Position numbers and translations under genes: made by a program. From the NCBI GenBank assembly GCA_001793155.1, contig MGHI01000004.1, positions 1-39,330 on the forward strand: a stretch of DNA of 39,330 nucleotides, in the 5' to 3' direction. The notes under the pieces are model-generated. The model saw nothing but the letters and a program-made list of their open reading frames with translations, was not told the origin of the DNA and searched no databases. The stretch comes from Candidatus Woesebacteria bacterium RIFCSPLOWO2_01_FULL_39_61 (lineage in GTDB: Bacteria; Patescibacteriota; Microgenomatia; UBA8517). Shown here piece by piece: positions 1 through 5,452 of this stretch; position 1 is the first letter of the stretch; the number at the start of each line of letters is the position of its first letter.

Positions 1-95
1 CAAATACTTCCTTATTTGTGCATCAGACGGAATCTGATTGAACTTATACATCTCCTCCATTTTATTGTAAATGTGCCAACAGGTTTAGATTACCC
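1..95 (-). mobile_element. Probable insertion-sequence end with the first codons of a transposase (IS1595-like), truncated by the window edge
   Basis: Minus-strand ORF from ATG at 51 (GGAGGAG just upstream) reads MYKFNQIPSDAQIRKYL off the edge. This resembles, from memory, N-termini of IS1595-like transposases in CPR genomes. Candidate terminus GGGTAATCTAAAC at 95-83. Only 17 codons are visible. Confidence 0.4.
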
Positions 96-108
96 TGAAA
101 AGTGATTA

Positions 109-136
109 TTGACTCAGGTGAAATTACTGATAGAAT
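109..136 (+). promoter_or_regulatory. Sigma70-type promoter for the leader peptide and transsulfuration operon
   Basis: TTGACT (109-114), 16-nt spacer, TGa-TAGAAT (extended -10, 131-136), 13 nt before the leader ATG. Confidence 0.6.
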
Positions 137-149
137 AATTTCAATCAAA

Positions 150-212
150 ATGAAATTTAATTTAACCACAACCTGTACCTTCCGCTTTGGGGAGGTATTT
201 TTGTGTCGTTAA
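150..212 (+). CDS. Cys/Thr-containing attenuator leader peptide (20 aa, MKFNLTTTCTFRFGEVFLCR)
   Basis: Translated by hand. Two TGT codons (174, 204) and four Thr codons. It overlaps attenuator segments 1 and 2 upstream of cysteine-forming enzymes. Confidence 0.7.
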   Translation: MKFNLTTTCTFRFGEVFLCR

Positions 213-261
213 AATAGTTTTTAAAAGTCACAGAGAAACCTCCTTAAAAAGGAGGTTTTTT
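176..261 (+). promoter_or_regulatory. Transcription attenuator with mutually exclusive 1:2, 2:3 and 3:4 stems
   Basis: TACCTTCC(176-183) pairs with GGGAGGTA(190-197). GGAGGT(191-196) can instead pair with ACCTCC(238-243), which is the 5' arm of the terminator. Confidence 0.75.
236..261 (+). terminator. Intrinsic terminator of the attenuator
   Basis: AAACCTCCTT-AAA-AAGGAGGTTT followed by further Ts. Confidence 0.85.
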
Positions 262-308
262 GTATACCTTAAACTTTCAAAAATAGCATACAATCCTGCA
301 AATTTCGC

Positions 309-378
309 AGCACGAGCCGTGTACGAATAAGCGAAGCTTAGCCGCGTTTGACGCGGTAGTACTGAAAAGGCGAGTGCT
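309..378 (+). other. GC-rich multi-stem structured element in the 5' UTR (unassigned)
   Basis: AGCAC-GA-GCC(309-318)/GGC-GA-GTGCT(369-378); GTAC(321-324)/GTAC(359-362); hairpins TAAGC-GAA-GCTTA(328-340) and GCCGCGT-TTG-ACGCGGT(341-357). Confidence 0.55.
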
Positions 379-397
379 AAGAAAAGGAGGATATTTT

Positions 398-1552
398 ATG
401 AAATATAACACTAAAATTATTCAGGAAGGAGAGAAACCGAACCTAAAAGAAGGGGCTTACGGAGACGTTTCAATCCCTATTCATCTTTCATCGACTTTTG
501 CCAGAAAAGAAGTTGAAACACCAACCGGAGGATATGAGTATTCACGGAGCGGCAATCCCACAAGATCAGCTCTCGAAAAAAAACTTGCCGCACTTGAGCT
601 GGCGGATTTCGGCTTGGCTTTTTCGTCCGGATTAGCAGCTACGACTACTCTTTTATTATCGCTGACCAAAAGCGGGGATCGTGTTTTAGCGTCAGATGAT
701 CTTTATGGCGGAACAAAGCGTTTGTTTAATAGGGTTTTTGATAAACAATACAGTGTCAAATTTAGCTATGTTGATACTTCAAATATTTCCGGTCTGGAAA
801 AAGCTATAAAATCTGATACAAAACTCATTTGGCTTGAAACTCCTACCAATCCGCTTTTAAAGATCTCTGATATTAAAGCTATTGCAAAAATCGCCAAAAA
901 AAATAACATTCTACTGGTAGTCGATAACACTTTTCTTTCTCCCTATTTTCAAAAGCCCCTCACACTCGGCGCCGACATAGTTCTTCACTCAACCACAAAA
1001 TACATAAACGGACACTGCGATTCCGTTGGTGGAGCAATAATGTTATCCGAAAGTAACGTGTTTGAAAAACTTAAATTTAATCAAAATGCCGTCGGAGCAA
1101 TCCTCTCGCCTTTTGACAGTTTTCTGACAATAAGGGGAATAAAAACACTAGCTCTCAGGATGGAGAGGCATCAGGAGAATGCGCTCAGGGTGGCAAACTT
1201 TCTATCAACACACCCCAAGGTGCTCAAAGTATATTACCCCGGATTACCAACCCACCCGGGATACGACATTGCTAAAAAACAGATGACAGGATTCGGCGGA
1301 ATGATATCGTTTGAAATAAGAGGGGGAATATCAACTGCAAAACGGTTCTTATCGAACTTAAAACTATTCGCTTTAGCCGAAAGTTTGGGTGGGGTAGAAT
1401 CGCTTATCGAACATCCCGCGAAAATGACCCACGCCTCTTTATCTAAACAAGAACGAGAAGCGGTTGGTATAACCGATGGACTTATCCGAGTATCGGTTGG
1501 TATAGAGGACGCCAGAGATTTAGTAAAAGATTTGAAACAAGCGTTGAAATAA
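398..1552 (+). CDS. Cystathionine gamma-lyase/gamma-synthase family PLP enzyme
   Basis: YSRSGNPT, FSSGLAA, ETPTNP, VDNTF, HSTTKYINGH (PLP lysine), SLGGVESL. Start moved from 374 to ATG 398, which follows AAGGAGG. Confidence 0.95.
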   Translation: MKYNTKIIQEGEKPNLKEGAYGDVSIPIHLSSTFARKEVETPTGGYEYSRSGNPTRSALEKKLAALELADFGLAFSSGLAATTTLLLSLTKSGDRVLASDDLYGGTKRLFNRVFDKQYSVKFSYVDTSNISGLEKAIKSDTKLIWLETPTNPLLKISDIKAIAKIAKKNNILLVVDNTFLSPYFQKPLTLGADIVLHSTTKYINGHCDSVGGAIMLSESNVFEKLKFNQNAVGAILSPFDSFLTIRGIKTLALRMERHQENALRVANFLSTHPKVLKVYYPGLPTHPGYDIAKKQMTGFGGMISFEIRGGISTAKRFLSNLKLFALAESLGGVESLIEHPAKMTHASLSKQEREAVGITDGLIRVSVGIEDARDLVKDLKQALK

Positions 1553-1556
1553 ACTT

Positions 1557-2912
1557 ATGTATTATAAATCAATTTTAGATGCTATCGGTAACACTCCCTT
1601 AGTCAAGATTAACCACCTTAATCTAAATCTTTCTGTTACGCTTCTTGCAAAACTGGAGTATTTGAACCCCGGTGGATCTGTAAAAGACAGAATCGGTCTT
1701 GCCATGATTGATAAAGCAGAAAAGGAAGGAAAACTAAAGTCGGGCGGAATAATTGTTGAACCAACATCCGGAAACACAGGGGTCGGCCTTGCCGTGGTGG
1801 CCGCTTTACGGGGGTATAAAACAATTTTTGTAATGCCCGACAAAATGAGCGATGAAAAAAGAAGCCTTCTTCGCGCATACGGGTCTAAAGTAGTAATTAC
1901 TCCGACGGCGGTACTGGCTGACGATGAAAGAAGTTATTATAAGGTTTCAGACAGGCTCTCTCACGAAATAAAAGGTGCGTACAAACCGGATCAATATCAC
2001 AATCCTGCCAATACAGAAGCACACTACACAGGAACAGGTCCTGAAATTTGGAAAGAAACTGATGGAAAAATTACTCACTTCGTCTGCGCAATGGGAACAG
2101 GAGGAACCATTACCGGGGTTGCAAAATTCTTGAAGGAAAAAAACAGGAATATAAAAATTATCGGAGTTGATCCGGTGGGATCCGTATTTCACGAATATAA
2201 AAAGAGGGGAAAGTTTCCAAAATTAATGAAAACGTATAAGGTTGAAGGAGTGGGTGAGGACTTTATCCCGGGAACCATTGATTTCAAATATATTGATGAG
2301 GTAATCCAAGTTAGTGACCGAGAAAGTTTCCTGACGGCAAGAAATCTTGCAAGAAAAGAGGGTCTCTTGGCCGGAGGATCCTCAGGAATGGCAATGTACG
2401 CTGCTAACCAAGTGTGCCAAAGATTAAAAAAGGGACTGGTTGTAGTACTTTTTCCCGATAGTGGAAAAAGTTATCTTTCAAAAATTTATAACGACGATTG
2501 GATGAGAGAAAACGGATTTTTAGAAAGTACCCAAGGAATAACAATATTAAATGTCCTGAAAAATAAAGTACGTTCCAAAATATTCAGCGTTAATCCCGAA
2601 GACAGCGTTAAAAGCACTATAAATATCATGAAAAAGTACGACATCTCTCAAATACTGGTAATCACGAGGGGAAAACTTTTGGGAAAGGTGAATGAAAAAG
2701 AACTTCTGGAAGGTCTTTATGCCGGACGAATAGGACCAACTAACAAAATAAGTGTAATACTGGACAAAAAGGTGCAAAGTGTAAGTGAAAATGAAACTAT
2801 AGATAGAGTTTCTGAACTGTTAACGCTCGATAACCTTGTAGTCGTTACCGACCACAGAAGTAAACCACTGGGCGTGGTAACGAGAATAGATTTGATAAAT
2901 TATTATTCCTAA
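1557..2912 (+). CDS. cbs: Cystathionine beta-synthase with C-terminal CBS-domain pair
   Basis: NPGGSVKDRIG (PLP lysine), EPTSGNTG, GTGGT, PDSGKSYLSKIYNDDWM typical of CBS, then about 120 aa of tandem CBS domains. Confidence 0.93.
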   Translation: MYYKSILDAIGNTPLVKINHLNLNLSVTLLAKLEYLNPGGSVKDRIGLAMIDKAEKEGKLKSGGIIVEPTSGNTGVGLAVVAALRGYKTIFVMPDKMSDEKRSLLRAYGSKVVITPTAVLADDERSYYKVSDRLSHEIKGAYKPDQYHNPANTEAHYTGTGPEIWKETDGKITHFVCAMGTGGTITGVAKFLKEKNRNIKIIGVDPVGSVFHEYKKRGKFPKLMKTYKVEGVGEDFIPGTIDFKYIDEVIQVSDRESFLTARNLARKEGLLAGGSSGMAMYAANQVCQRLKKGLVVVLFPDSGKSYLSKIYNDDWMRENGFLESTQGITILNVLKNKVRSKIFSVNPEDSVKSTINIMKKYDISQILVITRGKLLGKVNEKELLEGLYAGRIGPTNKISVILDKKVQSVSENETIDRVSELLTLDNLVVVTDHRSKPLGVVTRIDLINYYS

Positions 2913-2943
2913 TGCACCAAATTCGTAGTATCATACTAATATC

Positions 2944-4830
2944 ATGAGTGTCAAAGTTGACGATACCTTGGACAAATTAAGACATTCCACATCACACCTT
3001 CTGGCTGCGGCTATTCTTGATCTCTATCCCCGAGCCAAGCCTACATTAGGTCCGCCGATTGAGGATGGTTTCTATTATGATTTTGATAATCTGAAAATTT
3101 CGGACAGCGATCTACCTAAAATTGAAGAGAGAATGCATGACATAGTAAAAAGTTGGACAAAATTCGAAAAAAATCTGGTTACTTCAGAGGAGGCACGAAA
3201 ATTTTTCAAAGGAAACGAGTATAAAGTTGAGCTCATAAATGAGCACGCACAAGCTGGCGAGGAAATAACATTATATAAATCGGGGAATTTTATCGACCTC
3301 TGCCGCGGTGGACACATTACGAACCCCTCAAAGGAGTTAAAACATTTTAAACTTCTCTCTGTTGCCGGAGCGTACTGGCGTGGCAGCGAAAAAAACAAAA
3401 TGCTCACCCGTATCTACGGAACAGTCTTTTCTACCAAGGATGGGTTAGAAAAACATCTTAATAATCTCAAAGAAGCTGAAAAACGCGATCACAGGCTTTT
3501 AGGACGCGAGCTTGATTATTTCTCAATAAGTCCACTTACAGGCCCAGGACTTATCCTTTGGCATCCCAAATTAGCAACGATACGAAACATTGTCGAAGAG
3601 TACTGGAAAGGTCTACATTATAAACATGGTTATCAATTAGTCTATACGCCTCATATTGCCAGCATGGATATGTTCGTGATTTCTCGACACTATAACAAAT
3701 ATATCAACTCAATGTTTCCGGCAATGCTTCATCAATATATTGAAGGTGAAAGTAAACCCGACTATCAGGTAGATGAGCAGCTTAAGCCCATGAACTGCCC
3801 AAACCATATTCAGATTTACGAGTCGCATCCCAAAAGTTACAGAGAGCTTCCAATAAGAATGGGAGAACTTGGAACTGTGTATAGATATGAAAGAGCAGGC
3901 ACACTCCATGGAATGTCCAGAGTAAGAGGGTTTACTCAAGACGACTCCCATATATTTTGTCGACCAGATCAAGTTATTGATGAGGTTAGAGAAGTTATAA
4001 AACTAACTAAAAAAATGTACGAAGTTTTTGGTTTTACTGACTACCAAGCCTACATTTCAACAAGACCAGAAAAGTACTTGGGCTCATTAAAAATGTGGGG
4101 GATTGCCGAAGACTCTCTGAAAAAAGCCTTAGAGCTAGAAGGAGTTAAAAACTACAAAATTGATCAGGGGGCCGGAGTTTTCTATGGACCGAAAATTGAC
4201 TCGAAAGTTAAAGATTCTCTTGGACGGGAATGGCAGCTGGGTACTATACAATTCGACTTCAACATGCCGGATGCTGCCGAAACAACCGAAACGGAGATCG
4301 ATGAGTTTTGGGCAATGAAAACATTCCATGATAAATTTAAGACTCGAGAAGCACTTTCTAAATACCTTAAAAAACTAGGGCGGGGTTTTAATGTTCAATA
4401 CATTGATCAAAAAGGGCAGAAAAAACAAGCAGTAATGATACATAGGACTATTTTGGGATCAATGGAAAGATTTTTTGGAGTATTAATCGAGCATTACAAC
4501 GGAGCTTTCCCAACGTGGTTGACGCCTGTTCAGACTAAAGTTTTGCCGATTGCCGAAAGACATCTTGGATATGCAAATGAAGTCGTAAAGATATTAAAAA
4601 ATGAAGAAATTAGAGCAGAGCTAGATGATCGAAACGAAACTTTGCAAGCTAAAATTAGAGACGCGCAACTAGAAAAAGTTCCTTATATGCTCATCGTAGG
4701 AGATAAAGAGAAAAAAGCAGGAACTGTTGCGGTTAGATTAAGATCGGAAAAGGATCTAGGACAACTTTCCCTTGAAAAGTTTATTTCTGACGTTAAAGAG
4801 AAAATTGAATCAAAATCATTGGATTTGTAA
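2944..4830 (+). CDS. thrS: Threonine--tRNA ligase (no N-terminal TGS domain; about 37-aa insertion)
   Basis: RHSTSH and DLCRGGH editing motifs, KRDHR, KPMNCP, RVRGFTQDD, FYGPKID, HRTILGSMERF, C-terminal anticodon domain. Confidence 0.98.
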   Translation: MSVKVDDTLDKLRHSTSHLLAAAILDLYPRAKPTLGPPIEDGFYYDFDNLKISDSDLPKIEERMHDIVKSWTKFEKNLVTSEEARKFFKGNEYKVELINEHAQAGEEITLYKSGNFIDLCRGGHITNPSKELKHFKLLSVAGAYWRGSEKNKMLTRIYGTVFSTKDGLEKHLNNLKEAEKRDHRLLGRELDYFSISPLTGPGLILWHPKLATIRNIVEEYWKGLHYKHGYQLVYTPHIASMDMFVISRHYNKYINSMFPAMLHQYIEGESKPDYQVDEQLKPMNCPNHIQIYESHPKSYRELPIRMGELGTVYRYERAGTLHGMSRVRGFTQDDSHIFCRPDQVIDEVREVIKLTKKMYEVFGFTDYQAYISTRPEKYLGSLKMWGIAEDSLKKALELEGVKNYKIDQGAGVFYGPKIDSKVKDSLGREWQLGTIQFDFNMPDAAETTETEIDEFWAMKTFHDKFKTREALSKYLKKLGRGFNVQYIDQKGQKKQAVMIHRTILGSMERFFGVLIEHYNGAFPTWLTPVQTKVLPIAERHLGYANEVVKILKNEEIRAELDDRNETLQAKIRDAQLEKVPYMLIVGDKEKKAGTVAVRLRSEKDLGQLSLEKFISDVKEKIESKSLDL

Positions 4831-4879: not shown

Positions 4880-5452
4880 TTGAAAACCAACAATCTTAAC
4901 TTTCGAGTAAATCATCAAATTAACGCACCCGAATTAAGAGTTATTGGTGCCAATGGTAAACAGCTTGGAGTCTTAAAACTCCGGCAGGCTTTAGATAAAG
5001 CAAACGAGGCAGGCCTTGACCTTGTCGAAATTGCCCCAAACGCCAAACCTCCCGTAGTAAAAATCGTGGAGCTTGGCAAGTTCAAATACGAACAAGAAAA
5101 GAGGCTGCAAAAACAAAAGCGGGCAACGAAAGCCTCAGAAATAAAAGAGGTACGATTTTCGCCATTCATCGCCGAGCACGATTTCCAAAACCGAATAGCT
5201 AAGATCAGGGATTTTCTTGCCGACAAGCAAAAGGTCAGAGTCGTAGTTAAATTTACGGGTAGGCAAATGGACAGTAGGAGTTTTGGTTACAAACTCATTG
5301 AAAGAGTGGTAGAAGTTTTCAAAGACACAATTGTCATCGACATGGAACCGAAATTTTTGGGGAGACACTTAATAACGGTCATTTCGCCGACTAATAAGGT
5401 AAAAAAAGAAAAACCCGATTTAAATCTAAAAAATGCCGAAACAAAAAACTAA
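4880..5452 (+). CDS. infC: Translation initiation factor IF-3
   Basis: VNHQINAPELRVI, LDLVEIAPNAKPPVVK, KFTGRQ; thrS-infC-rpmI-rplT synteny; non-ATG (TTG) start. Confidence 0.96.
   Translation: MKTNNLNFRVNHQINAPELRVIGANGKQLGVLKLRQALDKANEAGLDLVEIAPNAKPPVVKIVELGKFKYEQEKRLQKQKRATKASEIKEVRFSPFIAEHDFQNRIAKIRDFLADKQKVRVVVKFTGRQMDSRSFGYKLIERVVEVFKDTIVIDMEPKFLGRHLITVISPTNKVKKEKPDLNLKNAETKN

Follow-up and report, generated by a model that had tools for sequence, protein, structure and literature searches.

The DNA analysed here, called the window throughout, is a stretch of 39,330 nucleotides (nt) from Candidatus Woesebacteria bacterium RIFCSPLOWO2_01_FULL_39_61 (contig MGHI01000004.1). The genome it belongs to, G000 in the following, comprises 1.08 Mb in 46 contigs and is 96% complete; the window forms the start of contig C4 and thus begins at a contig end. 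Our subject is the leader region at positions 109-262, which precedes the genes for cystathionine gamma-lyase (CGL), cystathionine beta-synthase (CBS) and threonyl-tRNA synthetase (thrS), and in which the original prediction had seen a cysteine-sensing leader-peptide attenuator. The leader and the genes behind it are made up as follows.

109..136, + strand: sigma-70-type promoter, TTGACT (109), 16 nt, TAGAAT (136), with an extended -10 TG; 10 of 12 matches to the consensus; aligned with TTGACT-17-TAAAAT of the related genome G022
150..212, + strand: leader open reading frame (ORF) of 20 codons plus stop (ATG 150, TAA 210-212), MKFNLTTTCTFRFGEVFLCR; from the sequence and the ORF listing
165..179, + strand: control codons 6-10, ACC ACA ACC TGT ACC (Thr Thr Thr Cys Thr); from ribosome-masking folds
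161..213, + strand: 1:2 hairpin (anti-antiterminator), 175-183/190-198 with a lower stem 161-171/201-213; -20.0 kcal/mol
187..247, + strand: 2:3 antiterminator helix, 187-205 with 229-247, one mismatch; forms when 159-186 is masked
233..262, + strand: 3:4 intrinsic terminator, stem 236-245/249-258 (outer extent 233/261), then a run of six U; -14.9 kcal/mol
398..1552, + strand: CGL, cystathionine gamma-lyase/synthase family (PF01053, E 3.5e-157; NF005871, 519 bits, cut-off 513)
1557..2912, + strand: CBS, with PALP and CBS domains (TIGR01137, 533.6 bits, cut-off 510.25; PF00291, PF00571)
2944..4830, + strand: thrS, starting 31 nt after CBS
4880..5452, + strand: infC, downstream of thrS

Anatomy and control window of the leader

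The ORF listing runs the frame of the leader peptide over 102..212 from a GTG. This GTG lies upstream of the -35 box, so that the predicted transcript has its first start codon at ATG 150. Transcription is predicted to start at about position 143, and the 5' untranslated region would then measure only ~6 nt and have no Shine-Dalgarno sequence. The promoter scan alone was not significant, with 14 promoter-like sites per 5 kb versus 11.5 ± 3.2 in shuffled sequences. As in the attenuator class, a short ORF is found at the 5' end of the predicted transcript directly 3' of the promoter, and the 1:2, 2:3 and 3:4 pairings exclude one another, the 3:4 pairing being an intrinsic terminator. The energies of the three helices are -20.0, -24.1 and -14.9 kcal/mol, where -24.1 kcal/mol is the folding energy of the region 186-246 that contains the antiterminator, and the 2:3 helix takes up the 5' arm of the terminator. 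Positions 137-270 fold with -39.5 kcal/mol compared with -22.0 ± 3.6 kcal/mol in 200 dinucleotide shuffles (z -4.83), none of which folded as well. Promoter, 20-amino-acid leader, 1:2 stem, antiterminator and terminator are thus all present where the original prediction had placed them. The antiterminator, described there as a GGAGGT/ACCTCC option, is borne out as a helix far longer than this hexamer.

In Rfam, the best match of the leader was Phe_leader with 29.3 bits (E 0.039), below the gathering score of 55; the 3:4 terminator aligns with the terminator stem of that model. The Thr-leader families of Rfam gave no match to the leader at E<=10, and neither did the T-box model, T-boxes being the usual means of thrS control in Firmicutes, in positions 1-3000 of the window.

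The dependence of the terminator on ribosome position was modelled by setting a 28-nt ribosome footprint on each leader codon in turn and refolding the rest. Loss of the terminator (0 of 13 pairs) is confined to stalls with T6, T7, T8, C9 or T10 in the A site; with any other codon there, the stop codon included, 11-13 of the 13 pairs are kept; for a stall at the second Cys codon (codon 19) the number is 12. T7, T8 and C9 remain in the control window for footprint 3' edges from +8 to +14. When the stretch between ATG and terminator was shuffled, stall-dependent loss of the terminator was seen in 1 of 300 shuffles. In this model, the control window is exactly the TTTCT run and the geometry is that of a classical attenuator. 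Threonine makes up four of the five control codons compared with 5.47% of codons genome-wide, a codon cluster of the kind found in attenuators, whereas two or more consecutive or nearly consecutive Cys codons at the stall site are not present: the only Cys codon there is TGT 174-176, the first of the leader. The expectation that a stall at Cys9 frees the antiterminator agrees with the model, in which segment 2 is released. With the same model, a stall on at least one codon of the run removes the terminator in eight of ten Cys-type and three of four Thr-type leaders of the group.

The leader might work as follows. Transcription would begin just 3' of the promoter at 109-136, and the 20-codon ORF would be translated from its very short untranslated region without a Shine-Dalgarno sequence, in coupling with RNA polymerase. 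If the ribosome reaches the stop codon, or never loads, the RNA would adopt the 1:2 plus 3:4 form and transcription would terminate near position 260. A ribosome halted at a hungry codon, with one of codons 6-10 in its A site, would instead cover segment 1, so that segment 2 (187-205) could pair with 229-247. This 2:3 pairing would prevent the terminator and allow read-through into CGL and CBS and, with no terminator in between, probably into thrS too.

Threonine and cysteine leaders in related genomes

A DNA search with the leader in 125 genomes of the family gave one extended match, G022:C13:5328-5429, with 75% identity over 98 nt and an E value of 8.9e-10. The other matches listed extend over 16 to about 60 nt, plus two weak ones of 103-112 nt at 70-76% identity, and most comprise the terminator part only. 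G022, the nearest relative, also has the thrS most similar to that of the window (72% identity). Its copy aligns from promoter to terminator, and promoter, stems and terminator are all present. The leader ORF of G022, MLNFQGTTTTTTTPFAGRVFLWL, contains seven Thr and no Cys, and the TGT codons of the window stand opposite ACT and TGG. In G022 the leader stands ~2.2 kb upstream of thrS and on its strand, an arrangement also seen in the window, but the genes in between differ: where G000 has CGL and CBS, G022 has an ORF of 491 amino acids and a SerB-like HAD-IB phosphatase.

L323:1440-1606: leader attenuator of G022
L323:1608-3083: ORF of 491 amino acids
L268:675-1412: SerB-like phosphatase, followed 85 nt later by thrS

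The phosphatase reaches 110.8 bits with TIGR00338 (cut-off 144). For the 491-amino-acid ORF, no Pfam or NCBIfam family above threshold was found, apart from one meaningless NCBIfam match, and no solved structure matched.

Thr-run leaders with stems of the same kind and followed by a terminator were also found directly before thrS in 5 of the 37 family loci examined (L270, L285, L277, L307 and L300). Their peptides are:

G016: MLLLTTTTTSSA
G013: MKIFTTTTTSC
G010: MSTILNIFTTTTAL
G641: MNLVTTTTTVAL
G615: ...TTTTTAA

In a MAFFT alignment with these thrS leaders (alignment A2), the codons ACC ACA ACC TGT ACC of the window stand opposite ACC ACC ACR ACT ACY. Pairwise scores of the window leader were higher with Thr leaders (31, 27 and 25.5) than with the best Cys leader (24). 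The run of four Thr codons is shorter than in all six relatives, which have seven (G022) or five (the other genera). According to our reading of alignment A2, where ACT has become TGT the partner in segment 2 has changed as well, which turns a C-G pair into a G-U pair. As the two arms of the terminator are displaced against each other in the MAFFT alignments A1 and A2, masking folds of the single sequences were used in place of stem covariation.

By these alignments, the window leader is an orthologue of the putative threonine sensor of the thrS neighbourhood. We consider it probable that positions 109-262 constitute a ribosome-mediated leader-peptide attenuator of the threonine lineage before CGL-CBS, with Thr-tRNA as the main input and the single Cys codon as a minor one. 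As the leader descends from the Thr-run leaders of the family, charged tRNA-Thr, read at four codons, should be the main signal; any hungry codon in the control window should cause read-through, which would leave to Cys-tRNA the minor part. Of the cysteine sensor originally proposed, the attenuator mechanism and the place of Cys9 in the control window stand, and Cys-run leaders do exist in ten genomes of the class; the sensed amino acid, however, was mostly wrong for a leader of threonine lineage. Threonine had been offered as a possible second input. Its codons T6-T8 and T10 do lie in the control window, but in view of the 7-Thr orthologue in G022 this input is probably the main one.

Upstream regions of thrS in the family (f1: L268-L290, L297-L315) contain a Thr-run leader, a T-box-like leader, or neither. 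Inspection by eye showed a GGAACCACG-like word, resembling the T-box consensus, before thrS of relatives in 9 of 23 loci, and a regular expression detected it in 5 of 14 loci. Rfam searches of 20 thrS loci of relatives gave no T-box at gathering score, and sub-threshold matches were obtained in two of seven loci (L286 with 42 bits and L281 with 37.6 bits, versus 93). An assignment as T-boxes was rejected for want of a match at gathering score, and these leaders are called only T-box-like. The sensing system before thrS has been switched among close genera of one family.

Ten genomes of the class encode leaders with two or three consecutive Cys codons (CC or CCC) and without a Shine-Dalgarno sequence before CGL, PALP (CysK/CBS-like) or PALP-CGL genes. 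The Cys codons lie just before segment 1 and are followed by a GGAGG / CCTCC / GGAGG-U module. Nine of these genomes are among the 30 other CGL-bearing genomes of the class, and the tenth, G653, was found by a GGAGG/CCTCC pattern search. The loci are L209:1374-1480, L213:1405-1500, L217, L167, L218, L216, L223:194-291, L189:1452-1561, L221 and L224:163-284, and the peptides are:

G627: MKIWNKTISICCCNPLT
G545: VKQLIICICCLPL
G560: MNHGTIIEICCCLP
G344 and G800: MKIAFEVNCCAILP
G614: MQTIIISCCCLAFFP
G513: MKYINITICCQAFL
G653: MNISINRVVCCCTS
G714: MNIILNSACCITPA
G748: MNIILKIVCCITPE

At several of these loci, one and the same stretch serves as the terminator's 3' arm and as the gene's Shine-Dalgarno sequence. 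No leader precedes CGL at the close loci L212 and L215, where pnp is directly followed by CGL, and none was found by scanning L210, L211, L214 and L219. Short ORFs with CC or CCC but no clear terminator, at L108, L103 and L117, were left out of all counts. For the Cys-run leaders of the class, no Rfam family was found, and no paper among those listed. On this comparative evidence, Cys-codon attenuation of CGL/CBS genes is real biology in the class. The expectation that leaders of relatives carry Cys codons before segment 1 holds in these ten genomes, and fails in the orthologue from G022, which has no Cys.

Leaders with three consecutive Cys codons were also seen outside the class. In Companilactobacillus, an ORF of 24-26 codons with a Shine-Dalgarno sequence lies upstream of CGL and contains CCC, followed by a strong terminator. 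Such leaders were found in 5 of 79 genome loci scanned (L048, L051, L062, L067 and L077, at ~2830-2975) and in the metagenome locus L118; a sixth CCC locus, L011, belongs to G627. The Companilactobacillus leader had no Rfam match, and a search on leader-peptide attenuation by cysteine in Lactobacillus gave no matching paper.

The pattern GGAGG, 10-40 nt, CCTCC, loop, GGAGG-U was present in 123 of the 401 genomes of the class (e.g. L179-L208), and a reversed-pattern control gave two hits. The families f17 and f8 possess their own conserved versions before unidentified genes, and several loci have a terminator whose 3' arm also provides the next gene with its Shine-Dalgarno sequence. PALP-CGL fusions are single proteins of 715-730 amino acids (L223:293-2458 and L221:1489-3636; L222, L224 and L225 by open-frame length).

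Downstream genes and the structured repeat

CGL and CBS form a pair that the sampled relatives of G000 in its family lack. In 36 family genomes, CGL gave four matches, all of them so weak (E of at least 6e-6, at most 24.5 bits) that none is orthologous, and a search at the level of the class gave no match in any of 26 family genomes. At E <= 1e-60, CGL is found in 31 of the 401 genomes of the class, G000 included. The closest copy, with 73% identity, is on the metagenome contig L086, which has the same order CGL-CBS-thrS. This contig ends inside CGL, so the leader of L086 cannot be seen. The next copies are those of G169 (69% identity, cut contig), G344 (63%) and G627 (62%). The GC content of CGL-CBS (0.40-0.44 compared with 0.39 for the genome) gives no signal of acquisition, and the absence of the two genes from relatives is the one observation that would point to a recent acquisition by G000.

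In a look for the source of homocysteine for CBS, neither ahcY nor metK gave a model match in G000, which is 96% complete as stated above, and cysE gave only a weak match of 45 bits (cut-off 211).

In the gap between CBS and thrS, the simple terminator scan listed no terminator-like site. ThrS lacks a Shine-Dalgarno sequence and is preceded, 9 nt before its ATG, by a -10-like box GTAGTAT(C/T)ATAC (window 2913-2946). The box is kept in G000, in G022 (L268 ~1460-1500) and in L086 (~2390-2428), and thrS probably has its own, possibly leaderless, transcript. A likeness of the joint between CBS and thrS to the structured repeat described next was also considered: positions 2919-2930 hold a word of 12 nt, unique in the genome, that is similar to the repeat's 5' end, and shorter versions of it occur 19-26 times. 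The likeness was not established.

The space between the terminator and CGL measures 136 nt and contains one copy of a structured repeat. The copy at 286-397 gave no Rfam match at E<=10, and positions 262-397 none above threshold. The copies in G000 are:

286..397, + strand: copy of the multi-copy structured repeat in the window; P1 293-297/388-392, core 310-329, 35-nt insert 330-364, P2 3' strand 369-377
C5:10744, + strand: second copy
C21:7483, - strand: third copy
C39:38669, - strand: fourth copy
C44:2477, + strand: fifth copy
C44:10214, - strand: sixth copy

The repeat consists of three nested helices, namely P1, P2, which contains tandem G-A, and P3, whose loop is GAAUA. In 28 copies this model is paired at 88%, and 13 of 17 pairs are changed on both sides; as much covariation was obtained in none of 500 shuffles, and pairing in slid controls was 31-38%. 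The 20-nt core, with up to three mismatches, occurs in 97 of the 401 class genomes with 0-15 copies each, compared with seven hits of a reversed-pattern control in all 401. No common theme links the genes around the six copies in G000, and one copy lies antisense to the genes beside it, which makes a metabolite riboswitch unlikely. The Shine-Dalgarno sequence of the gene overlaps the outer helix at its 3' arm in the window (CGL, 384-392), and likewise in G714 and G748.

Competing readings and relation to known attenuators

Several explanations other than a threonine-lineage attenuator with a minor cysteine input have to be weighed. Were the leader a pure cysteine sensor, stalling at Cys9 would govern read-through and the Thr codons would be incidental. 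C9 is in the control window for every footprint tested, the genes directly downstream make cysteine, homologous genes stand behind Cys-run leaders in ten genomes of the class, and Cys is rare in G000 (0.57% of codons, served by one tRNA gene). Nevertheless we regard this explanation as improbable, considering that every true Cys leader found has two or three Cys codons instead of one, that the stall at the second Cys keeps the terminator with 12 of 13 pairs, and that TGT lies opposite ACT of the Thr leaders, the orthologue in G022 having seven Thr and no Cys. The converse would be a threonine-only attenuator, inherited with the thrS neighbourhood, in which the Cys codon is neutral or compensates a structural change and CGL and CBS are passengers. 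The orthology with Thr-run leaders, the different genes between attenuator and thrS in G000 and G022, and the change of the pairing partner along with TGT, as we read the alignment, are consistent with it. It is a possibility that we take seriously but hold to be unlikely: C9 is inside the control window, where any hungry codon should flip the switch; Cys, which the downstream enzymes make, is what has appeared out of 19 possible replacements; and the Thr run has become shorter than in all six relatives. As to selection of the Cys codon, the indications are divided: its identity with the product of the downstream enzymes speaks for selection, and the compensating change of the pairing partner, as we read it, speaks against it.

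The leader could also be a decaying relic that senses nothing, for instance a constitutive partial terminator or a gene for a small RNA or protein, with CGL and CBS expressed from elsewhere, e.g. from 262-397. The ORF without a Shine-Dalgarno sequence, the eroded Thr run and the mobile-looking structured element inserted between terminator and CGL would fit such a fate. However, promoter, ORF, all three helices and the U tract are intact, the switch geometry arises in only 1 of 300 shuffles, and the promoter scan lists no promoter-like site on the + strand at 137-397. A relic therefore seems very improbable to us. A broader scenario, which we put forward as doubtful speculation, is that the stretch from attenuator to thrS is a site of gene exchange in Woesebacteria-like genomes. 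The attenuator of G000 would then be in the middle of retuning, from seven Thr codons to four with a Cys gained at the centre of the control window, and read both Thr-tRNA and Cys-tRNA, with the repeat at 286-397, whose outer helix holds the ribosome-binding site of CGL, as the joint of capture.

For the threonine-lineage attenuator that we favour, some observations are unfavorable. Control of CGL and CBS by threonine has no obvious metabolic logic. The shrunken Thr run could reflect decay rather than retuning, and the partner change that goes with TGT implies that the Cys codon may be a structural accident. With a -10-like box of its own and no Shine-Dalgarno sequence at thrS, read-through may matter little for threonyl-tRNA synthetase. 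The leader ORF at 150-212 itself lacks a Shine-Dalgarno sequence, and the simple terminator scan does not list the 3:4 hairpin, but instead the 1:2 hairpin with TTTTTG. The masking model is thermodynamic and not kinetic, and it failed for L217, L218 and L270.

Leader-peptide attenuation is textbook knowledge for Proteobacteria, and thrL of the E. coli thr operon is the classical attenuator with Thr codons in its leader. The window leader resembles such thr leaders, as well as a candidate thrL in Streptomyces lividans, in its short ORF, where Thr codons form a run and the stalled ribosome picks antiterminator or terminator. It differs from thr leaders in that the first controlled genes are CGL and CBS and not those of threonine biosynthesis, and in that GGAGG/CCTCC words make up its stems. 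The S. lividans candidate lies before thrS, which it controls, on a transcript reported as leaderless; according to the accessible part of that study, it has two Thr codons and no clear terminator, compared with four Thr codons plus one Cys codon and a terminator in the window (PMC8079986). Proposals of leader-peptide attenuation also exist for Actinobacteria, and for the hisS paralogues of some Firmicutes (PMC2965389).

For cysteine, leader ORFs with polycysteine runs and without a Shine-Dalgarno sequence have been described before cysteine genes of Actinobacteria, including the cbs operon of Bifidobacterium longum (Seliverstov 2005, PMC1262725, accessible part), and mycobacterial polycysteine leaders act by freeing a ribosome-binding site, as stated in the available portion of a preprint (Canestrari et al., bioRxiv 10.1101/834739). 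The window leader shares with these the short ORF, the lack of a Shine-Dalgarno sequence and the position before genes of cysteine metabolism, here CGL and CBS. In the Actinobacteria, stalling at Cys codons remodels the mRNA structure; as far as the available text of these sources goes, their leaders have Cys runs and no clear intrinsic terminator, whereas the terminator of the window leader is strong and its control window contains one Cys codon. A further proposed ribosome-mediated attenuator, uORFC-8-2 before cysS in Rhodobacterales (Brewer 2021, PMC8632094), resembles the window leader in that Cys codons of an upstream ORF fall within the first stem and a terminator ending in a run of U comes next. 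In the accessible part of that paper, it has two tandem conserved Cys codons and precedes an aminoacyl-tRNA synthetase gene in another phylum, and no sequence relation to the window is shown. The Cys-run leaders of the class are closer in design, with four segments made of GGAGG/CCTCC words, no Shine-Dalgarno sequence and the same downstream gene families, but they have two or three consecutive Cys codons and their stop codon at segment 2, and the window leader aligns better with Thr leaders. The CCC leaders of Lactobacillales differ by the presence of a Shine-Dalgarno sequence and by stems unrelated to those of the window.

Neither Rfam 15 nor, among the papers listed, a literature search on Candidate Phyla Radiation (CPR) bacteria or Patescibacteria gave a CPR example of leader-peptide attenuation. 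The kind of attenuator is known; it is newly seen in CPR bacteria with tiny genomes. One CPR class (Microgenomatia-type, ~1 Mb) uses attenuation repeatedly, with Thr-run leaders near thrS and Cys-run leaders before CGL/CBS-like genes, all built from Shine-Dalgarno/anti-Shine-Dalgarno words and without a Shine-Dalgarno sequence of their own. The mixed Thr/Cys leader of G000 next to its 7-Thr orthologue offers a case of how the specificity of an attenuator might drift after genes have been exchanged behind it. As members of the class have not yet been grown alone, such switches are indicators, readable from sequence, of the amino acids that limit them.

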